Position numbers and translations under genes: made by a program
Shown: positions 1-33,039 of the stretch, piece after piece
Layout: each line of letters opens with the position of its first letter
Numbering within the stretch: position 1 is the first letter of the stretch
Source of the DNA: Caulobacteraceae bacterium
GTDB lineage: Bacteria > Pseudomonadota > Alphaproteobacteria > Caulobacterales > Caulobacteraceae
DNA: 64,000 bases
Direction: 5' to 3'
NCBI GenBank assembly: GCA_025450315.1
Contig: JANWHQ010000159.1
Coordinates: forward strand, 8,429-72,428
Notes under the pieces: generated by a model
Seen by the model: only the letters and a program-made list of their open reading frames with translations
What the model was told of the DNA's origin: nothing
Databases searched by the model: none

Positions 1-254
1 CGCCCCAGCCCCTGTCGCCGCAGCTCCGGATCGGCCGCCAGATAGTAGACCCAGCCCCGATGCCCGTCGGTCCCCACCATGGCCGAGGCGACGATCCGGC
101 CGTGGAGCCGGCCCGCCAGGACTTCGGAGGCGGGGCCCGATCGCGCCAGGGCGATGTCGTCGCGCGGATCGTTCCAGGGACGGGTGAGGCTGCAGCGCTC
201 CCAGAGGGCCACGACCTCCTCGATCTCGCCATCCTCCAGAGGACCGATCCGCAC
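1..254 (-). CDS. GNAT family N-acetyltransferase, YpeA-like (partial; C-terminus outside window)
   Basis: Open-ended minus-strand frame, absent from the ORF track. My translation from GTG at 254 (or 257) reads V(V)RIGPLEDGEIEEVVALWERCSLTRPWNDPRDDIALARSG...DGHRGWVYYLAADPELRRQGLG. It is collinear with E. coli YpeA (..[40 protein letters not shown]). Confidence 0.6.
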   Translation of the reverse strand, partial: MRIGPLEDGEIEEVVALWERCSLTRPWNDPRDDIALARSGPASEVLAGRLHGRIVASAMVGTDGHRGWVYYLAADPELRRQGLG

Positions 255-265
255 CACGGTTCCCG

Positions 266-1009
266 CTACTTCAGGACGCCGTCGAACAGCGAGACCAGTT
301 CGCGCCAGTGCCGCTCGGCGGCCGGCTCGTCGTAAACGGACAGGTCCGGCATGGTGTAGCCGTGCTTGGCGCCGGCGTAGATCTCGACCGTGCTCTCGAC
401 GCCGGCGTCGTCCAGCGCCTGTTTCAGCCGGTCCTTCTGCTCGGGCGGGAAGCCCGCGTCCTGGTCGGCGCCGCCGACATAGACCTTGGCCTTGATCCTC
501 GGCGCCAGCAGGTGAGGGCTGTTCGGGTCGTCGGTGGCGAGGTGGCCCGGATGGAAGCCCGCCGCCGCGGCGATGCGGCCCGGGAACTCGGCCGCCGCGA
601 TCATGGAGACCCGACCGCCCATGCAATAGCCAGTGACGCCGACCTTGGAGCCCTTCACGTCGGGCTGCCCGGAGAGGAAATCGAGGAAGGCGCCGGTGTC
701 GGTCCTGACCGCCTCGGCGCTGACGCACCTGCCCATCTTGGCGAAGATGGCGGCGCGGGCGGCCTCGTCGGCGAACAGCTTGGCGGGGTCCATCGGCTCG
801 TAGGGGCCGTCGCGGTAGAACAGGTCGGGCAGCAGGGTGAAATAGCCATGCCCGGCCAGCCGTTCGCCGAAGTCGAACAGGGCTGGGCGGATCGCCGGGG
901 CGTCCATGTAGATGATCGCGGCGGGCCAGGGGCCCTGGCCCGGGGGGCGGAACACCCAGGCCCGACAGTGGCCATCCCGTGTCTTGATCGAGACCTGTTC
1001 GCGGCTCAT
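266..1009 (-). CDS. dienelactone hydrolase family protein (carboxymethylenebutenolidase-like)
   Basis: 247-aa ORF with the nucleophile elbow GYCMGG (the Cys-type elbow typical of dienelactone hydrolases). The alpha/beta-fold layout carries a C-terminal His region (YAGAKHGY). Confidence 0.85.
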   Translation of the reverse strand: MSREQVSIKTRDGHCRAWVFRPPGQGPWPAAIIYMDAPAIRPALFDFGERLAGHGYFTLLPDLFYRDGPYEPMDPAKLFADEAARAAIFAKMGRCVSAEAVRTDTGAFLDFLSGQPDVKGSKVGVTGYCMGGRVSMIAAAEFPGRIAAAAGFHPGHLATDDPNSPHLLAPRIKAKVYVGGADQDAGFPPEQKDRLKQALDDAGVESTVEIYAGAKHGYTMPDLSVYDEPAAERHWRELVSLFDGVLK

Positions 1010-1037
1010 CGGACCTCTCTCCAGCGGCGAGTCTGGG

Positions 1038-2270
1038 CTATTCGGCGGCGAGCCGCTGACGGCCCGCGCGAGCGCGAGGCGGAAGCTTGGACGCCGCGGC
1101 GACGGCGTCCTTCAGCGCGGCCTCGGTCTCGATCAAAAGGTGCGGGCCGGCCTTTCGCACGTCGGTGCAGCCGGTCAGGGCCAGGGCGGTGGCCAGCTCG
1201 CCGCGCATGATGTCCAGCACATGGGTCACGCCGGCCTCTCCCCCGCCGCCGGCCAGGCCGAAAGCCCAGGCGCGTCCGAGGAAGCAGCCCTTGGCGCCCA
1301 GGGCCATGGCCTTCAGCACGTCCAGGCCCGAGCGCACCCCACCGTCCATGAACAGCGTCAGGTCGTCGCCCACCGCGTCGGCGATCGGGGGCAGGGCGGT
1401 GATCGAGGACTGGGCCCCGTCGAGCTGACGCCCGCCGTGGTTGGAGACGATCAGCCCGTCGAAGCCCGAGCGCACGGCCTGCTTGGCGTCCTCGACGTCC
1501 TGGACGCCCTTGAGGATGATCTTGCCCGGGTAGTTCTCGCGCAGCCAGTCGATGTGCGACCAGGTCAGGGCGTTGTCCATGCTGCCGCGCACCCAGGGCC
1601 AGAAGCCCTCCACGCCCTTGGCCTCGGGCACGGCGGGGGCGATGTTGCCGAAGATGTGCGGCCGGCCGTTCAGCCACACGTCCCACACCCAGGGCAGGTG
1701 GGTGATCCCGTCCCAGGCGCGGCGGAGCGGCAGATGCCAGCTGTTGTCGCCGGCCAGGCCGTTGCGGATGTCGCGATAGCGGGTTCCCGGCACAGGCAGG
1801 TCCACGGTGAAGGCCAGCACCGGGCTGCCGAGCTCGGCGGCGCGCTGCAGCAGCGCCTTCATGTAGCCGCGGTCCTTGATCATGTAGAGCTGGAACCAGG
1901 TCGCGCCGCCCGAGCCCCTGGCCACTTCCTCCAGGTCGCAGATCGACATGGTCGACAGGCACATGGGAACGCCGGCCTTGCGGGCCGCGCGGGCGGCCTG
2001 CACCTCGCCCCGGCGTGCGTACATGCCCGCCATGCCGATCGGCGAGAGCACCATGGGCATGGCCAGCTCCTGGCCCAGCAGCTCGGTCCTCATCGAGACC
2101 TGCGAGACGTCGATCAGCACCCGCTGGCGCAGGTGGATCTTCTGGAAGTCCTCGACGTTGGCCCGGAGGGTGGCCTCCGAATAGGCGCCGCCGTCGACGT
2201 AGTCGAACAGCACCTTGGGGATGCGCCGCCGGGCCAGCTCGCGATAGTCGGCGACATTTGCGGGGCGCAT
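1038..2270 (-). CDS. lldD: FMN-dependent alpha-hydroxy-acid dehydrogenase, L-lactate dehydrogenase type
   Basis: 410-aa ORF collinear with E. coli LldD: DYRELARRRIPKVLFDYVDGGAYSE, GMYARRGEVQAARAA, SNHGGRQLDG, GRAWAFGLA. Confidence 0.85.
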   Translation of the reverse strand: MRPANVADYRELARRRIPKVLFDYVDGGAYSEATLRANVEDFQKIHLRQRVLIDVSQVSMRTELLGQELAMPMVLSPIGMAGMYARRGEVQAARAARKAGVPMCLSTMSICDLEEVARGSGGATWFQLYMIKDRGYMKALLQRAAELGSPVLAFTVDLPVPGTRYRDIRNGLAGDNSWHLPLRRAWDGITHLPWVWDVWLNGRPHIFGNIAPAVPEAKGVEGFWPWVRGSMDNALTWSHIDWLRENYPGKIILKGVQDVEDAKQAVRSGFDGLIVSNHGGRQLDGAQSSITALPPIADAVGDDLTLFMDGGVRSGLDVLKAMALGAKGCFLGRAWAFGLAGGGGEAGVTHVLDIMRGELATALALTGCTDVRKAGPHLLIETEAALKDAVAAASKLPPRARAGRQRLAAE

Positions 2271-2345
2271 GCGGGCGGCCTCCTGGATCGGGTTCTTATC
2301 GGCCCTGGGCAGTCATAGCCGACGCGGGGAGGGGGCCGCTACGGC

Positions 2346-4274
2346 CTAGACGCCCGCCGCGGCCCTCACGGCCTGCAGGGTGGCGCGGGACATCACCGGC
2401 CGGCCGGCGCTGAGCACCGAGGAGACTCCCGGCTTGCGGGCGGTCACGGCCTTGGGCTCTTCCTCGAACAGGTCCGCCAGGTTCTCGGTCATGGCCCCGC
2501 CCAGCTGCTCGACGTCGACGATGGTCACCGCCCGCCGGTAGTAGCGGGTCACGTCGTGGCCGATGCCGATGGCCAGGAGCTCGACCGGCGAATGCTGCTC
2601 GATCTCGGCGATCACCGTGCGCAGGTGCCGCTCCAGATAGTGGCCGGAGTTCACCGAAAGGGTGGAATCGTCCACCGGCGCGCCGTCGGAGATCACCATC
2701 AGGATGTGGCGCTGTTCGGGACGGGCCATCAGCCGCTGGTGGGCCCAGACCAGGGCCTCGCCGTCGATGTTCTCCTTGAGCAGCCCCTCGCGCATCATCA
2801 GGCCGAGGTTCTTGCGCGCGCGCCGCCAGGGCTCGTCGGCCGCCTTGTAGACGATGTGCCTGAGGTCGTTCAGCCGCCCGGGCTGGCCCGGCTTGCCCTC
2901 TTTGATCCAGTCGTCGCGCGACATGCCGCCCTTCCAGGCGCGGGTGGTGAACCCCAGGATCTCGACCTTCACCGCGCAGCGCTCGAGCGTGCGGGCCAGG
3001 ATGTCGGCGCAGACCGCGGCCACCATGATCGGGCGTCCGCGCATGGAGCCGGAGTTGTCGAGCAGGAGGGTGACGACCGTGTCGCGGAACTCCATGTCCT
3101 TCTCTTCCATGAAAGACAGGGGCGCGGTGGGATCGACCACCACCCGGGTGAGGCGCGAGGTGTCGAGGATCCCTTCCTCCAGGTCGAAGGTCCAGGCGCG
3201 GTTCTGCTTGGCCATCAGCCGCCGCTGCAGCCGGTTGGCCAGGCGCGAGACCACGCTGGAGAGACTGGCCAGCTGCTGGTCCAGATAGGCCCTGAGACGC
3301 TCCAGCTCCTCCGGCTCGCAGAGATCGGCGGCGCCGACCACCTCGTCGTGGGCGGTGGTGAACACCTTGTAGGGGGGCTCGGGCAGGCCCGGGTCCTTGA
3401 CGTCGGGACGGGAGGTCTTGGCCGAGTCGCCGAGATCGGCGGCCTCGTCGGACTCCTCGCTCATCTCCATGTCGTCGACCTGCACCATCTCCGCGTCGGC
3501 GGAGTCGGTCTGCTGGTCGGACAGCTGCACCCTGTCGGGCGGAGCGGTCTCGCCGTCGCCCTGTTCGCCCTGCTGGCCGTCGCCTTCGCCACCCTCGGGC
3601 TCCTCCTCGCCTTCCTCGCCGTCGGACTCCTCCGCGTCGCTCGCGTCGGTCAGATCCAGATCGCGCAGGATCGAGCGGGCCACCCTGCCGAAGGCCGACT
3701 GGTCGTCGATGGCGCCCAGAAGCCGGTCCAGGTCGGCGCCGGCGCGGCCCTCGATGTCGGTGCGGAACTGGTCGACCAGGGCCTTGGCCCCGTCGGGCGG
3801 CGCCGCGCCGGTCAGCCGCTCGCGCACCAGCAGCGACAGCACGTCGGCCATGGGCGCGCGAGAACGGTCCATCACCCGGTTCAGGCCCTTGCGCTCGATC
3901 TCGCTTTCCAGCGCGGCGGCCAGGTTGGCGCGCACGCCGCCCAGCGCATTGGCGCCGATGGCGTCGGTGCGGGCCTGCTCCAGGGCCTCGAAGATGGCCG
4001 CGCTTTCCGCCGAATGGGGCCGGAGCCGGGCGTGGGCGCCCTCGTCGTGGTGGGCCAGGCGCAGGGCCATCTGGTCGGCCAGGCCGCGGATGCGGGCGGC
4101 CTCCTTCAGCGGCAGGTCGCGCGGCGGATGCGGCAGCACCGCCTTGTGGCCCTGCAGGCTCGGCCCCTCGGCCGAGAACACCACCTCCAGGTCGGGCAGT
4201 TCGGCCAGCGAACGCGCCGCGTGCGCCAGGGCGCGCTTGAAGGGTTCGGTCGGGGCTTCCGTCTTGGCGGCCAT
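2346..4274 (-). CDS. cobT: CobT-type cobaltochelatase subunit (acidic linker plus C-terminal VWA domain)
   Basis: 642-aa ORF with a CobT-like N-terminus, a long D/E-rich low-complexity linker, and a VWA/MIDAS motif ([13 protein letters not shown]). Confidence 0.85.
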
Positions 4275-4420
4275 GAGGGAGGACTTAGCGGCCTGACGGG
4301 AGGTTGCAAGGGGCGGCTGGTTTCGAATGCGGCATGCGCGCGCTATGCGGACGGCTTCTCAGGTGATAGAGGCCCGCCGTCTGGCGGCAGGTCCCGCCGC
4401 TTCCCATCTCACCTGTCGTC

Positions 4421-5014
4421 ATGCTGCTGAACATCCTTCTGGTCATCCTGGTCCTCGACTGCGTCGCGCTCACCGCCGTGATCCTGATGCAGCGCTCCGA
4501 AGGGGGCGCGCTCGGCATGGGCGGCGGCCCGCAGGGCATGTTCACCGCCAGGGGCGCGGGCGATCTGCTCACCCGCATGACCTCGATCCTCACCACGGTG
4601 TTCTTCGTGCTCAGCCTGGGCATCACCCTCATGGCCGGGCACAGCCGCCAGAACGCCTCGCTGACCCAGCGGCTGAAGGTCAATCCGATCGACATCTCGG
4701 CCCTGGCCGCCTCGTCCGCCCCCGCCCCGGCGGCGTCCTCGGCCCCGGCCGCGCCGCCGCTGCCGGGCGCCATCCCGCCGTTGCCGAGCGCCGCGCCGCT
4801 GCCGACCGTGGCCAGCCAGGCCCCGCGCCCTGGCCCCGCTGCTCCGCCGCGGCTTCGCCCGCAGCTAAGGCCCAGCGCCCCGCCGCTGGCCGCCGCGCCG
4901 GGCGCCCTGAAGACCACCCTGCCGTCGATCGCCAAGCCCACGCCCCTGATCGTTCCGCCGCCGGCCACCGCCGCGCCGGCTGGGCCGGCCGGTCAGGCGC
5001 CGTCCGGACAGTAA
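4421..5014 (+). CDS. secG: preprotein translocase subunit SecG with a long Pro/Ala-rich C-terminal extension
   Basis: The N-terminal ~100 aa is SecG-like (MLLNILLVILVLDCVALTAVILMQRSEGGALGMGGG... plus a second TM segment TSILTTVFFVLSLGITL). About 90 aa of A/P-rich tail follow. Confidence 0.8.
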   Translation: MLLNILLVILVLDCVALTAVILMQRSEGGALGMGGGPQGMFTARGAGDLLTRMTSILTTVFFVLSLGITLMAGHSRQNASLTQRLKVNPIDISALAASSAPAPAASSAPAAPPLPGAIPPLPSAAPLPTVASQAPRPGPAAPPRLRPQLRPSAPPLAAAPGALKTTLPSIAKPTPLIVPPPATAAPAGPAGQAPSGQ

Positions 5015-28523: not shown

Positions 28524-29273
28524 TCAGATGAGTCCGAGGGCCCTGAAGCTGGCGACGCCCTGGAGGCCCACCACCAGATGGTCGTGCACCGAGAGGTTCA
28601 GGGTGCGGCAGGCCGAGATCACCTGTCGTGTCATGTCCACGTCGGCCTGGGAAGGGCTGGGATCGCCCGAGGGGTGGTTGTGCACCAGGATCACCGCCGA
28701 GGCCGCCAGCTCCAGCGCCCGACGGGCCACCTCGCGCGGATAGACCGGGGCATGGTCGACCGTGCCCTGGTTCATCACCTCGTCGGCGATCAGCTGGTTC
28801 TTCTTGTCCAGGAACAGCACGCGGAACTGCTCGCGCGGCTCGTGCGCCAGGGCCAGCTTGACGTAGGCCAGAAGCGCGCTCCACGAGCCGATGACGGTGC
28901 GTTTCTGCATGCAATCCAGACCCATGCGCTGGGCCAGTTCATGCACCAGCTTCAGGTCGAGCGCCGCCTGGGGACCGATCCCGCGCACGGTGCAGAGATC
29001 CTCGACCGAGGCCGACAACACGCCCTGCAGCGTGCCGAAGCGGGTGATCAGGGCCTTGGCCAGCGGCTTGACGTCGCCGCGCGGGAACGAGCGGAACAGG
29101 TAGAGCTCCAGCGCCTCGTAGTCGGCCAGGGCCGCGAACCCCGCGTTCAGCGCCCGCTCGCGCAGCCGCTCGCGATGGCCGAGGTGATGCGGCCTGGGCT
29201 GTGCCGGCGCGGCCGGCGGCGCGAACAGCTGCGCGCCGCTCCAGGCCTCCCGCACCTCGCCCGAATCCGCCAT
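28524..29273 (-). CDS. radC: RadC-family JAB/MPN domain protein
   Basis: 249-aa ORF with an HhH region (DLCTVRGIGPQAA) and the JAMM motif HNHPSGDPSPSQAD. Confidence 0.9.
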   Translation of the reverse strand: MADSGEVREAWSGAQLFAPPAAPAQPRPHHLGHRERLRERALNAGFAALADYEALELYLFRSFPRGDVKPLAKALITRFGTLQGVLSASVEDLCTVRGIGPQAALDLKLVHELAQRMGLDCMQKRTVIGSWSALLAYVKLALAHEPREQFRVLFLDKKNQLIADEVMNQGTVDHAPVYPREVARRALELAASAVILVHNHPSGDPSPSQADVDMTRQVISACRTLNLSVHDHLVVGLQGVASFRALGLI

Positions 29274-29321: not shown

Positions 29322-29329
29322 AAGGGGCG
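29322..29329. repeat. left copy of the 8-bp target-site duplication AAGGGGCG
   Basis: Identical octamer at 32370..32377. Each copy directly abuts the outer end of a terminal inverted repeat. Confidence 0.85.
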
Positions 29330-29354
29330 GGCGATGTTACACTTGACAAACCAG
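29330..29354 (+). repeat. left terminal inverted repeat (IRL) GGCGATGTTACACTTGACAAACCAG
   Basis: The reverse complement of 32345..32369 is GGCGATGTTACACTTCGCAAACTAG. The first 15 nt are identical and 22 of 25 match overall. Confidence 0.85.
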
Positions 29355-29391
29355 CCTCAAGATATAGGTTGGGCGTCAAGGAGTTACGCCC

Positions 29392-30357
29392 ATGGCCCGC
29401 GCCGTTCTCGATGCCCCGCACTTCCACGATGAAGCCGCCGCATTCGCCTACGTAGAAGCGCTGCTGTGGCCGCAAGGCCCGGTCTGCCCCCACTGCCAAG
29501 CGGCTGGGGAACAGGTCTATCGGCTGGGCGGCAATGCCACCCGGATCGGCCTGCACAAGTGCCGGAGCTGCAAGGGCCAGTTCACCGTCCGCCAAGGGAC
29601 CATCTTCGAAAGCTCGCACCTGCCCCTGCATCTCTGGCTGCAGGTCATCCACCTCATGTGCGCCTCGAAGAAGGGCATCAGCACCCGTCAGATCCAACGG
29701 ATGCTGCAATGCTCCATGAAGACCGCCTGGTTCCTCGGCCACCGCATCCGCGAAGCCATGGCCGAGAAGCACGGCATCTTCACCCCGCCGCTTGGCGGCG
29801 CTGGCAAGGTCATCGAGGCCGATGAGGCATTCCTGAGCCGCGATCCCTCCAAGAAGCTCAAGGGCCCCGGGCCGGCATTGCCGGTCATGTCGCTGGTCGA
29901 GCGCGAAGGAAAGGTCCGCTCGTTCCACATTCCCGACGTGACCGTGAAGACCCTCCACACCGTCCTCGCTCGGCACGCCTCCAAGGAAAGCCGCCTGATG
30001 ACCGATGGCGCATACGCCTATCGCTCCATCGGCTGGAACTTCGCCGACCACGCTTGGGTCAACCACGAGGAGCGCGAGTACGTCTCCCGCCAGGACCCCT
30101 CGATCCATTCGAACACCGTGGAAGGGGTCTTCTCGATCCTGAAGCGCGGCGTTTACGGGACCTTCCACCACGTCTCGGAAGCGCACCTGAAGCGCTACCT
30201 CGCGGAGTTCGACTTCCGGTACAACACCCGCGCCAAGCTGGGCGTTGACGACATCGAGCGCGCCGACATCGCGCTTCAGGGCGCCAAGGGCAAGCGCCTC
30301 ACCTACGAAACGACTGGTCGCAGAGGGCAAGCTTCGGCCGGGGGCGCTACCGCCTAG
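29392..30357 (+). CDS. IS1595 family transposase
   Basis: 321-aa ORF with an N-terminal zinc ribbon (CPHC...CRSC) and the ISXO2-like DDE region (..VIEADEAFL.., ..LMTDGAYAY.., ..NTVEGVFSILKRG..). Confidence 0.9.
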   Translation: MARAVLDAPHFHDEAAAFAYVEALLWPQGPVCPHCQAAGEQVYRLGGNATRIGLHKCRSCKGQFTVRQGTIFESSHLPLHLWLQVIHLMCASKKGISTRQIQRMLQCSMKTAWFLGHRIREAMAEKHGIFTPPLGGAGKVIEADEAFLSRDPSKKLKGPGPALPVMSLVEREGKVRSFHIPDVTVKTLHTVLARHASKESRLMTDGAYAYRSIGWNFADHAWVNHEEREYVSRQDPSIHSNTVEGVFSILKRGVYGTFHHVSEAHLKRYLAEFDFRYNTRAKLGVDDIERADIALQGAKGKRLTYETTGRRGQASAGGATA

Positions 30358-30411
30358 GCGCTGGCGTCGCTCGCGTGACTCTGAGCCTGATCCGGCGCAG
30401 CTGCGGCAACA

Positions 30412-30612
30412 CTAATTCAAGAGGGATTGCCTCTTCCGTGAACGCCATTGCCCACGAACTTCCGCACCTTCTGAAGAGGTGAGGATTCCGAGGCGCCGAA
30501 GTTGGTCCACTGTAAGGTTTTCCCAATCGGCCCTGGCGTCCAACGCCTCGGCCAACGGGATGCCACGAACAAAGAAATCGTTCAGGGACGGCTTCGGTCG
30601 TTGATTGCGCAT
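30412..30612 (-). CDS. hypothetical small protein (weak call)
   Basis: 66-aa ORF in the lower-GC cargo, antisense to the rest of the cargo operon. I recognise no family and it may not be expressed. Confidence 0.25.
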   Translation of the reverse strand: MRNQRPKPSLNDFFVRGIPLAEALDARADWENLTVDQLRRLGILTSSEGAEVRGQWRSRKRQSLLN

Positions 30613-30743
30613 GCCGCATCCTCTCGCGTAGATTCATCCACGCGATGGCGGCCAGCCATCTTGTCACGGCCAGGGGGATTCCGGCCCCCTGAAAACAGGG
30701 CTTTCGCCCCGCGAGTCCTATAGCGGATGCGGGGTGATTTGTC

Positions 30744-31481
30744 GTGTCAGAACACCGGAAAGGGCGTTGGCCCGATCTTTATTTGCCGTTTGATGAGGAA
30801 TTGCGCCTAGCCCATAGTCAGGCGGAAACAGTCATGGACGATGCATCGAACGTCATAGGCGCATTCAGCGAGGACCATGCCGCCGCGCTGAGCGAGATTT
30901 CCGTCCGCCAGCTTCGCAAATGGAATCGCATCGGTTTGCTCCGGCCGAGCTACGGCGCTGACGAGCGCCACGTTCCCTATGGCCGGGTCTATTCCTTCCG
31001 CGACGTCGTCTCGCTGCGCGTGCTCGGGCAGCTACGGAACAAGCTCCGGGTCCCCGAGGCGCACCTGATGGACGTGCAAAGGGAACTATCGAAGCTGTCT
31101 GATGAGCCATGGGCCTCTCGGACCTTAGAAGTGCTCAAGCGTCGTGTTGTGATCCGAGACCCGGTCACCTTGGAGAAACGGGAGCTCATCAGTGGTCAGC
31201 GGGTATTGGACATCCCGCTAAGGTTGGTAATCTCCAGCCTTCGTGGTGCGGTGGCCAAGTTGAATGAACGCGGCGCTGACGAGATTGGAAAAGTGAAGCG
31301 GTACAAGTTCGTCTCAGAGAACCAGCCCGTGATCGCCGGCACCCGCATTTCTGTGGCGGCGATCAAGTCATTTGCCGACGCTGGCTACAGCGTTGACGCC
31401 ATCATCAAGGAGTATCCCGGCCTCAAAGCCGAGGACGTTAAGGCGGCCATTGAGTACCATGGCCAGTCCGCCGCCGCTTAA
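30744..31481 (+). CDS. MerR-type HTH fused to a C-terminal DUF433 (antitoxin-like) domain
   Basis: 245-aa ORF. The N-terminal part is MerR-like (FSEDHAAALSEISVRQLRKWNRIGLLRP...YSFRDVVSLRVLGQLR). The C-terminus is DUF433-like (PVIAGTRISVAAIKSFADAGYSVDAIIKEYPGLKAEDVKAAIEY). An alternative start at the internal MDDASN is possible. Confidence 0.75.
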   Translation: MSEHRKGRWPDLYLPFDEELRLAHSQAETVMDDASNVIGAFSEDHAAALSEISVRQLRKWNRIGLLRPSYGADERHVPYGRVYSFRDVVSLRVLGQLRNKLRVPEAHLMDVQRELSKLSDEPWASRTLEVLKRRVVIRDPVTLEKRELISGQRVLDIPLRLVISSLRGAVAKLNERGADEIGKVKRYKFVSENQPVIAGTRISVAAIKSFADAGYSVDAIIKEYPGLKAEDVKAAIEYHGQSAAA

Positions 31482-31867
31482 TGGCGAAGGCAACGCCAAA
31501 GCTGCGCTTTTTCACCGATGCCAACGTGCCTGACTCCGTCGGGGATTATCTGCGCCTCCGAGGCCACAGCGTTCACCGAATGCGCCACCATATGCCGGTC
31601 AATTCGGCCGATCCCATCGTTGCGACCGCCGCTATGCGGGATAATCGAATTCTAGTCAGCCAAGACAAGGATTTCGGTCATCAGCGCTTCATGGCGCCGC
31701 GCTTCGCCAGTCTCAACCGCTTGGCGCTTGTCGGGGCTGGCCCGACGTTGTCATCGGCCGTGAAGCAGTACATGCACCTGATCGAACTTCACTGGAGCCA
31801 CAAGAGCCGGAAGGGCGCGCGGCTCACGATCCACGTCAAAGCGGACGAGGTCCGGTTCCGGGACTGA
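31481..31867 (+). CDS. DUF5615 family PIN-like nuclease (putative toxin)
   Basis: 128-aa ORF whose start overlaps the upstream stop (TAATG). The acidic residues are placed as in a PIN-like fold (RFFTDANVP..., ILVSQDKDFG). Confidence 0.8.
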   Translation: MAKATPKLRFFTDANVPDSVGDYLRLRGHSVHRMRHHMPVNSADPIVATAAMRDNRILVSQDKDFGHQRFMAPRFASLNRLALVGAGPTLSSAVKQYMHLIELHWSHKSRKGARLTIHVKADEVRFRD

Positions 31868-31876
31868 CGTGTTAAG

Positions 31877-32062
31877 ATGACGACCATGGCCAAAGCACAA
31901 CCGAAGCCCAAGCTCACCGACGCCGAACGCCACGAGCGCTTCAAGGATATGGCGAAGGAGCTAGGAGCCGAGGGCGAAGCGCCGGGATTTGACCGCGTTG
32001 TTGGACGTGTGGCGAAGCTTCCCCGCGAGAACCCAAGTTCGGATAAGGGGCAGCAGGATTGA
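31877..32062 (+). CDS. hypothetical small soluble protein
   Basis: 61-aa charged ORF starting 9 nt after the PIN-like gene, on the same strand. I recognise no family. Confidence 0.35.
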   Translation: MTTMAKAQPKPKLTDAERHERFKDMAKELGAEGEAPGFDRVVGRVAKLPRENPSSDKGQQD

Positions 32063-32307
32063 GTGTAGACCCGCGCGTGCCTGGCGACGCCATCGTCGCG
32101 GCGGTATCGGGCCTCTACGTCGCCGCTTCGATCAGCTTGGGTCGCACCATCAACCCGAACGTGTTTGCGTGGCCGCTCGGGAGGGTCATTCTGCGCCGGA
32201 GAGGCGATGCCGGCATCTTCTGGCTTTGGGTTGTCATGGCCGCGCTGTGGTTCGTTGGTTCCTTCTACGCGACGGTCAGACTCCTGTTTTTCGGTCGTTA
32301 CCCCTGA
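32059..32307 (+). CDS. hypothetical small membrane protein (two predicted TM segments)
   Basis: 82-aa ORF whose TTG start overlaps the upstream stop (TTGA). Hydrophobic stretches are AIVAAVSGLYVAASISL and IFWLWVVMAALWFVGSFYATV. Confidence 0.4.
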   Translation: MSVDPRVPGDAIVAAVSGLYVAASISLGRTINPNVFAWPLGRVILRRRGDAGIFWLWVVMAALWFVGSFYATVRLLFFGRYP

Positions 32308-32344
32308 ACGTCACCCGGACGTTTCCTAGTCCTACATCTGGCCC

Positions 32345-32369
32345 CTAGTTTGCGAAGTGTAACATCGCC
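32345..32369 (-). repeat. right terminal inverted repeat (IRR)
   Basis: Reverse complement of IRL (22/25). It is immediately followed by the right TSD copy. Confidence 0.85.
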
Positions 32370-32377
32370 AAGGGGCG
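32370..32377. repeat. right copy of the 8-bp target-site duplication AAGGGGCG
   Basis: Identical to 29322..29329. Confidence 0.85.
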
Positions 32378-32430
32378 ATGGCCAAGGTGGGCGACGCGCG
32401 CTATCGTTTCGATCCGGACACACTGACGCC

Positions 32431-33039
32431 ATGCGCATGAGACGCCTGATCTGCGCCGCCGCCATGGGCGCCGTCCTGACCGGCGGGCCCCCCGCCACCG
32501 CCCAGTCCGCCGACCCGACCGTGGTCGCGGGCGTGACCGTGCTGGCGCGCCGGCCCCACGTGGTGGCCGGTCTGACGATCACCCCCGGACGCAGATGCCT
32601 GGGGGCCCGCCATCCCGCCGATCCGGAGGTCCCGGCGCCGAAACTCGTCAGCACCTTCCCGGCGAAAGGGGGCGTGGTGCGGCCGGGGATCCTGGTCCTG
32701 CGGCTGACCTTCGATCTGCCGATGACCTGCGAAGGCCTGCTCGACGGCCATCCGGACCTGCTGAATCCCTGCCCTCAGCCGCTCCACGATCCGCTGCTCA
32801 GCTTCGACCGGCGCACCTTCCTGACGGTCTGCCAGGTCAAGAAGAGCAGCCATTACGGCCTGTGGCTCAACCACAGCATCTATCACCGCTTCACCGGTCT
32901 GGCGGGACGGTCCTCGCAAGCCTCCGAACTGGTGTTCGACACCTCGGACGGGCCCGAGACCACCACCGTCGAGCAGGCGATCGCGGAGGACAATTGGCTG
33001 CAGCGGGCGGCGCTGCCGCAGCAGCCGCCGAAGGATTAG
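32431..33039 (+). CDS. hypothetical exported protein
   Basis: ATG at 32431 gives MRMRRLICAAAMGAVLTGGPPATAQS (signal peptide), 202 aa. The tracked start at 32350 lies inside the IS inverted repeat, so I rejected it. Confidence 0.55.
   Translation: MRMRRLICAAAMGAVLTGGPPATAQSADPTVVAGVTVLARRPHVVAGLTITPGRRCLGARHPADPEVPAPKLVSTFPAKGGVVRPGILVLRLTFDLPMTCEGLLDGHPDLLNPCPQPLHDPLLSFDRRTFLTVCQVKKSSHYGLWLNHSIYHRFTGLAGRSSQASELVFDTSDGPETTTVEQAIAEDNWLQRAALPQQPPKD

Follow-up and report, generated by a model that had tools for sequence, protein, structure and literature searches.

We analysed a 64,000-nucleotide stretch of a Caulobacteraceae bacterium (contig JANWHQ010000159.1, positions 8,429 to 72,428 of the forward strand), hereafter the window, which carries two overlapping genes in the forward-strand open reading frames (ORFs) 30744..31481 and 31481..31867. 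An earlier reading made from the letters alone, which we call the sequence-only reading, had taken the first for a helix-turn-helix (HTH) protein of the MerR type fused to a DUF433 antitoxin-like domain, and the second for a small PIN-like nuclease. We find it likely that the two genes form a type II toxin-antitoxin (TA) operon of a VapBC45 (Rv2018/Rv2019)-like superfamily, travelling as a passenger in a complete 3,040 bp 'transporter' insertion sequence (IS) of the IS1595 family (29330-32369). The genes are called antitoxin and toxin from here on. The main features of the locus are the following.

29322..29329, no strand: left target-site duplication, AAGGGGCG, 8 bp; the identical 8-mer abuts both ends of the IS
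29330..29368, forward strand: left inverted repeat (IRL), 39 nt, containing a TTGACA box; 79% complementary to 32331-32369
29392..30357, forward strand: transposase gene (tnp) of the IS1595 family, 321 aa, from Pfam and NCBIfam
30834..31481, forward strand: predicted antitoxin gene, 215 aa, from Pfam, family alignment, secondary structure of the model, Foldseek and hhalign; its reading frame is open from GTG 30744
about 30861-31094, forward strand: MerR/CvkR-type winged HTH (wHTH) of the antitoxin
about 31101-31268, forward strand: conserved β-rich, putative dimerisation domain of the antitoxin, plus a helix
about 31293-31457, forward strand: DUF433, the C-terminal three-helix domain of the antitoxin
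31479..31483, forward strand: TAATG stop/start overlap, in which TAA 31479-31481 shares one base with ATG 31481-31483
31481..31867, forward strand: predicted toxin gene, 128 aa, PIN-like protein of the Mut7-C group (DUF5615/COG4634; sister of PIN_10), from Pfam
32331..32369, reverse strand: right inverted repeat (IRR), pairing with IRL
32370..32377, no strand: right target-site duplication, AAGGGGCG, 8 bp, abutting IRR

The antitoxin and the toxin

Both domains proposed for the first protein score above their Pfam cut-offs (MerR_1 with 29.2 bits against 21.6, DUF433 or PF04255 with 53.1 bits against 23.6), and the DUF433 part also has a profile match to 2ga1 (E 6.6e-6). The fusion is thus real, but the gene is almost certainly shorter than the 245 aa obtained by translating from the first GTG at 30744. 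In a 36-member family alignment most homologues open two to five residues before a conserved NVIGAFSEE motif (invariant GAF.E), and for this reason the start is most likely M31 of the long frame, i.e. the ATG at 30834, which gives 215 aa. The database copy of the protein has the same length. Some 60 residues separate the HTH from DUF433 and had been described as a linker. They contain the invariant residues W93, V100, V105, V106, Q122 and D126 (215-aa numbering) and are predicted to form β-strands, so that alignment and model together describe a conserved β-rich domain in this place.

The second protein matches DUF5615 with 38.2 bits (cut-off 23.8), as had been read from its sequence. It also scores 25.4 bits with PIN_10, just under the cut-off of 26.2, and has a weak Mut7-C match; among the toxins of the family the DUF5615 and PIN_10 models cross-match. 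The family-invariant D13, N15, D18, D44, D62 and D64 are all present. The predicted model is fairly confident (predicted local distance difference test, pLDDT, 82; predicted template-modelling score 0.79), and a sequence search of the PDB gave nothing significant; the PIN-like fold is supported by profile matches, not by structure. Since the antitoxin and the toxin both retain every family-invariant residue, the pair is probably functional.

Pairing across genomes

A word-index search returned 380 homologues of the antitoxin, nearly all of about 213 aa and carrying PF13411 and PF04255. When 1.84 billion cluster representatives were searched with a hidden Markov model, 283 clusters were found at E<=1e-30 and 839 at E<=1e-10, and the MerR_1+DUF433 architecture accounts for at least 283 clusters at 50% identity. 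Scanning one genome per species confirmed at least 539 loci. The best 80 of these were examined, and pairing was scored for the 69 that have a full-length antitoxin homologue.

A gene of the DUF5615/PIN_10 type lies directly downstream in 62 of these 69 loci, which come from five phyla: Pseudomonadota (Alpha- and Betaproteobacteria), Chloroflexota, Actinomycetota, Myxococcota and Acidobacteriota. This answers the survey that the sequence-only reading had proposed. Among the closer relatives (L001-L039, from Alpha- and Betaproteobacteria, Chloroflexota, Myxococcota, Acidobacteriota and Thermoleophilia), a homologue of the window toxin directly follows 37 of the 38 full-length genes, and the two genes mostly overlap by 1 or 4 nt. 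The distant actinobacterial relatives have the same MerR_1+DUF433 architecture as the window protein; in 25 of 31 the next gene is a PIN_10 gene overlapping by 4 nt, often with a DUF5615 cross-match. Adjacency in 62 of 69 loci, mostly with overlaps of 1 or 4 nt, is no chance pairing, and the translational coupling first noticed in the TAATG of the window is the common state of the family.

The antitoxin family is present in a single record among 72,556 plasmid records, and plasmid addiction was rejected as a main role on this account. It was not found among 50,697 phage records, and one unannotated PHROG matches the antitoxin over its full length.

Relation to VapBC45 and VapBC10

Pairs of this kind had been held to be essentially uncharacterised, and the fusion to be what sets this one apart. 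The literature contradicts both points. Makarova 2009 (PMC2701414) predicted PIN-COG2442 as a TA pair and described fusions of a wHTH to COG2442 beside PIN genes, with Rv2018 next to Rv2019 as an example. Matelska 2017 grouped COG4634, PIN_10 and PIN_16 with Mut7-C as a reduced PIN-like group, regarded DUF433-PIN_10 as a TA system and referred to 5af3, the crystal structure of Rv2018. A minimal pair was characterised experimentally in VapBC10 (ssr2962/slr1767) of Synechocystis, where the stand-alone DUF433 protein VapB10 neutralises the PIN toxin VapC10, binds an inverted repeat in its own promoter and is degraded by ClpXP (Ning 2013, PMC3834315). Three years later Rv2019 was shown to be toxic to both E. 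coli and M. smegmatis, with Rv2018 as the rescuing partner; its breakdown of rRNA and mRNA depends on metal, and the changes E41K and D98K remove its toxicity (Kim 2016, PMC5175181). The architecture is therefore not new, and the window pair is a further member of a described class that joins a long DUF433 antitoxin to a small PIN-like RNase.

The link to Rv2018 was reached through an actinobacterial intermediate, a fold search and a profile-profile comparison; 5af3 was missed when PDB sequences were searched with the window antitoxin by phmmer or with the family profile. An actinobacterial member with MerR_1 and DUF433 matches 5af3 collinearly (phmmer, E 0.0034). For the window antitoxin, an AlphaFold model (pLDDT 75) matches 5af3_A over 234 columns (Foldseek E 7.7e-4, prob 1.0) with a low TM-score of 0.32, as expected if domain orientations differ, and an identity of about 14% in the structural alignment. 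Against the profile of the Rv2018 family, hhalign gives 85% (E 5.9e-6) over 151 columns, pairing window residues 55-207 with Rv2018 residues 70-235, that is the last helices of the HTH, the β domain and DUF433. NCBIfam holds no useful family for the pair, nor for Rv2018.

VapBC45 of M. tuberculosis and the window pair thus share a long antitoxin (215-240 aa) made of an N-terminal HTH, a β-rich middle and a C-terminal DUF433, and a small PIN-like toxin of the Mut7-C group downstream of it; gene order and coupling are the same in the actinobacterial relatives. They differ in that Rv2019-type toxins score with PIN_10 whereas the window toxin scores with DUF5615, and in the placement of the window pair inside an IS. 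VapBC10 has the same order of a DUF433 antitoxin upstream of a toxin of the PIN superfamily, VapC10 being a PIN-domain protein in the wording of its paper (PMC3834315). Its antitoxin is a stand-alone DUF433 of about 75 aa without the MerR/β module, for which neutralisation and promoter binding were shown by experiment.

The MerR-type module and its possible likeness to CvkR

The winged HTH of MerR (α1-α2-W1-α3-W2-α4) is present in the antitoxin, as seen in the MerR_1 match and in profile matches to BmrR and others. The canonical MerR structures BmrR, CueR and HiNmlR align with the model over about 83 columns only (Foldseek). After α4 the model continues with strands at residues 97-101, 104-108 and 125-128 and then a helix of 16 residues, without a long α5. 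Neither an effector-binding domain nor a conserved cluster of cysteines was detected in the antitoxin, whose C-terminus is DUF433.

The best fold match is CvkR (7xn2), with a Foldseek E of 1.3e-4 over 154 columns and a TM-score of 0.64 normalised to CvkR, the β region of the antitoxin being modelled at low confidence; similarity in sequence is confined to the wHTH. In CvkR (Alr3614), the MerR-type repressor of type V-K CRISPR-associated transposons, a wHTH is followed by a β dimerisation domain of three strands and by a helix at the C-terminus, without a coiled coil or a recognisable effector site (PMC9938897). The antitoxin model, with its low confidence in the β region, seems to follow the same succession of winged HTH, three-stranded β domain and helix without the α5 coiled coil, and a YS..DL.AL.V motif is shared with CvkR. 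Unlike the antitoxin, CvkR has neither DUF433 nor a toxin partner, and it regulates cas12k and tnsB. In the model, then, the N-terminal two-thirds of the antitoxin resemble a unit for DNA binding and dimerisation of the CvkR type, which suggests that the DNA-binding half is CvkR-type rather than a classical MerR sensor. The CvkR paper (PMC9938897) does not mention Rv2018-type antitoxins.

About ten short actinobacterial relatives (163-184 aa; L062 at 3992-4489, L063, L065, L070-L072, L074, L077, L079 and L080) have MerR_1 only, without DUF433 and without a toxin gene. The top PDB match of the one in L062 is again CvkR 7xn2 (E 7.6e-8, wHTH only). These proteins may be stand-alone CvkR-type regulators outside cyanobacteria.

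The insertion sequence and its relatives

The less ordinary feature of the pair is its place as a passenger inside a complete IS1595-family IS. The sequence-only reading had put it on a mobile element, and the transposase, the 39 nt inverted repeats and the 8 bp duplication all agree with this. Between 29330 and 32369 the inverted repeats, identical over their first 15 nt (GGCGATGTTACACTT), enclose the transposase, the TA pair and small ORFs. The transposase scores 106.9 bits with DDE_Tnp_IS1595 and 44.7 bits with Zn_ribbon_IS1595 in Pfam, and 177 bits with transpos_IS1595 in NCBIfam. A target duplication of 8 bp is typical of IS1595. The GC content dips to 58-65% over the pair, against about 70% in the flanks.

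The IRL terminus also occurs in two loci from betaproteobacterial metagenome-assembled genomes, L018 and L020, and in at least 120 metagenome stretches. In L018 and L020 homologous repeats (GGCGATATTATACTT...) again enclose a tnp-antitoxin-toxin unit, and each element has its own 8-bp duplication: TTGAATTT in L018 (2899-5058, 2,160 bp) and TATTCGAA in L020 (2724-4990, 2,267 bp). Their transposases are about 49% identical to that of the window. The transposase frame of L018 is split in two pieces, with intact ends.

The rest of the lineage carries other genes. Of 128 anchored ends sampled in a metagenome scan for the left terminus, none carries the window TA. Complete copies measure 2.0-4.0 kb and differ in cargo, and the 8-bp duplications are perfect in most of them. 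One of them, L102 (reverse strand, element positions 242-3054), encodes a protein of 240 aa with a full-length match to the Rv2018-family profile (E 1.8e-9), together with a PIN_10 toxin (47.8 bits). In L151 and L186 the second gene encodes a PIN protein (PF01850; under the Pfam cut-off in L186) behind an unknown protein of 250-283 aa, L187 has an HTH_3/Peptidase_M78 protein, and other copies have weak DUF3800-like cargo proteins. L145 is a further copy with other cargo.

In its IS1595 transposase, its terminal inverted repeats and the passenger genes inside them, the window element resembles the IS1595 transporter IS, a term of Siguier, Gagnevin and Chandler (2009) as relayed in PMC3129680. 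TA pairs as transposon cargo are documented for the Tn3 family (Lima-Mendez 2020, PMC7157771), in a catalogue that, in contrast to the window, contains no DUF433 or PIN_10/DUF5615 pair. We found no description of TA cargo in IS1595 elements in the literature searched, which did not extend to ISfinder.

Three small ORFs complete the inside of the element.

30412..30612, reverse strand: 66-aa ORF, probably no gene; no Pfam, NCBIfam or PHROG match and no homologue in 200 loci
31877..32062, forward strand: conserved accessory ORF of 61 aa with a KLTDAERHERF..AKELG motif; homologues in IS-bearing loci
32059..32307, forward strand: unsupported hydrophobic ORF of 82 aa; no family match and no homologue in other IS copies

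The 66-aa and 82-aa ORFs were rejected as genes for want of homologues and family matches, and the segment holding the former is absent from L018 and L020. The 61-aa ORF matches no family in Pfam, NCBIfam or PHROG. It has 37 phmmer matches (best E 6.6e-12) and 65 jackhmmer matches among IS-bearing loci, where it usually adjoins IRR or sits just after tnp.

The IS is inserted between radC (28524-29273) and a block with DUF1801 and methionine aminopeptidase (map) genes. No empty site was found; the only other contigs with an identical RadC, the metagenome contigs L201 and L202 (JGI 3300035174 and 3300035175), both end inside the IS. Contigs that break in an IS are the usual sign of more than one copy of the element in the population concerned. 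A 229-aa ORF (32350-33039, forward strand) beside the IS opens inside the right inverted repeat. Its likelier start is at about 32431 (MRMRRLICAAAMGAVL..., signal-peptide-like). With this start about 54 nt past the duplication, the promoter of this ORF may have been displaced or replaced by the IS.

Candidate operators and proposed mechanism

Two palindromes upstream of the antitoxin are candidates for an operator.

30704..30737, no strand: imperfect palindrome CCCCGC-N16-GCGGGG around CTATAG, seen in the sequence; candidate operator or hairpin at the end of tnp
30744..30755, no strand: short palindrome GTGTCAGAACAC, speculative candidate for operator half-sites, 79 nt upstream of the likely start

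At the position aligned with the first, L018 and L020 have an inverted repeat around a (T)CATAG core with different arms, and at the position aligned with the second they keep a TGTC(A/G)G motif. By eye, an (A/G)TTGAC(G/C/T) box can be seen about 60-75 nt upstream of the antitoxin start in several alphaproteobacterial loci (L004-L008, L012, L016 and L022), with short inverted repeats within about 20 nt that differ by locus, such as GACGCG-N6-CGCGTC in L008 and GGAATG-N12-CATTCC in L005. A TTGAC-type box with inverted repeats is a possible promoter-plus-operator arrangement.

We propose that the antitoxin, probably a dimer held together by its β-rich domain, would bind an operator upstream of 30834 through its wHTH and autoregulate the operon, while its DUF433 end would bind and block the toxin. 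We assign the latter role to DUF433 since DUF433 proteins that stand alone are enough to neutralise PIN toxins. The toxin would be a metal-dependent RNase of the reduced PIN-like Mut7-C group, and on loss of the antitoxin, by proteolysis or with the locus itself, it would arrest growth. Within the IS the pair would most likely be a selfish hitch-hiker with a stabilising effect. A regulatory logic unlike that of canonical antitoxins had been suggested for the fusion, but N-terminal DNA binding and dimerisation combined with C-terminal toxin binding is the standard modular layout of antitoxins.

Weighing the interpretations

Several results weigh against a VapBC45-like TA operon. Purified Rv2018 did not inhibit Rv2019 in vitro (PMC5175181), and VapB10 activates its operon instead of repressing it (PMC3834315), so that precedent allows either sign of autoregulation. 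No promoter upstream of the antitoxin passed the consensus scan, the weak candidates being those seen by eye, and the upstream regions of 14 loci have no palindrome or operator in common. In the antitoxin model the β domain is of low confidence (pLDDT 51-56 at residues 91-130). The model of the toxin has no significant fold neighbour in the PDB (best E 0.14), which agrees with the statement of Matelska 2017 that the Mut7-C group lacks a solved structure. The profiles of DUF5615 and PIN_10 are modestly linked by an hhalign alignment of 57 columns at the N-terminal end (51%, E 1.5e-4): it pairs D13, N15, D44 and D62 of the window toxin with D6, N8, D40 and D59 of PIN_10 toxins, and past these columns the alignment is too weak to place E41 and D98 of Rv2019 on the window toxin. 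In the literature searched the name DUF5615 appears in no paper, and no experiment on the window pair or on any DUF5615-type toxin was found. Lastly, HTH_66 (PF21321), which covers the N-terminus of Rv2018 with 108 bits, is not among the Pfam matches of the window antitoxin at E<=1, and conversely MerR_1 reaches only E 0.13 on Rv2018. The two antitoxins thus differ in their N-terminal family, and for this reason the window pair is, by its profiles, a sister family of Rv2018/Rv2019 within one superfamily and not the same family.

The alternatives fit less well. One of them, which goes back to the sequence-only reading, makes the MerR module an effector- or stress-sensing activator working by promoter distortion, with a logic different from autorepression. 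One might point to the MerR_1 match above cut-off, to activation of its own promoter by VapB10, a minimal DUF433 antitoxin, to the CvkR site in Pcas12k, which falls within a 21-nt spacer and makes distortion possible for CvkR, and to the several homologous loci in which short inverted repeats, different in each locus, come after a TTGAC(G) box. But only the winged HTH is MerR-like, with three strands and a 16-residue helix modelled in place of a long α5; effector domain and cysteine cluster are lacking, the closest fold is that of a repressor in which no effector site can be recognised, and the consensus scan found no promoter with a spacer of 19-20 bp. We regard such a sensor as improbable. 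The pair might also serve mainly in anti-phage defence, as an abortive-infection module spread by the IS. PADLOC, however, gave only a weak HTH match (mad1, E 0.004) and no assignment to a defence system, phage records have no homologue, and a scan of neighbouring genes around the insertion between radC and DUF1801/map recognised none for defence. This has to be set against a DUF433-PIN_10 pair in a defence island (Matelska 2017), the full-length match to an unannotated PHROG, and the other cargo of the IS lineage, with its PIN pairs, its Xre-HTH/ImmA-type protein and its DUF3800-like proteins. On balance we consider a primarily defensive role unlikely.

A last set of alternatives gives the antitoxin a part in the life of the IS itself. 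In the narrower form it would double as an IS regulator which, like CvkR, represses the transposase promoter in IRL, and the TA pair would then belong to the transposition module. Its best fold match does repress transposon genes, three independent copies have the TA genes immediately after tnp and in the same orientation, and for Tn3 transposons it has been proposed that TA pairs belong to this module (PMC7157771). Yet 36 of the 39 closer loci have no IS1595 transposase nearby and none of the 128 sampled ends of the IS lineage carries the window TA, from which it follows that IS and TA are each autonomous; nor was an operator common to IRL and the region upstream of the TA genes found. We give this very little credence. 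The broader form is that one IS1595 lineage, with terminus GGCGATRTTAYACTTGACA, serves as a modular carrier and has taken up TA pairs of the VapBC45 superfamily on more than one occasion (MerR_1-DUF433/DUF5615 in the window, L018 and L020, Rv2018-type/PIN_10 in L102), that these pairs act as an addiction module of the IS against its loss, and that the CvkR-like antitoxin perhaps represses the transposase promoter, much as CvkR controls its transposons. Taken as a whole this is a long shot; if true, a single structural subfamily of MerR proteins, bound up with the biology of transposons, would unite CvkR with the N-terminal module of VapB45-like antitoxins.

Implications

As a VapBC45-like operon the pair adds little to what is known, since architecture, pairing and toxin/antidote behaviour were already described for the Rv2018/Rv2019 class. 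Its context as IS cargo is well defined and a link to CvkR is possible, both from computation. There are nevertheless practical consequences. Pairs of MerR_1+DUF433 and DUF5615 proteins, at present labelled 'DUF433 domain-containing' or 'MerR regulator', can be annotated with VapBC45, and a solved structure of a DUF5615 toxin would be new for the reduced PIN-like group. The element is a clean example of a TA pair as IS cargo, with exact ends and target duplications, and its lineage, with many cargo variants, could serve to study how passenger genes benefit an IS.

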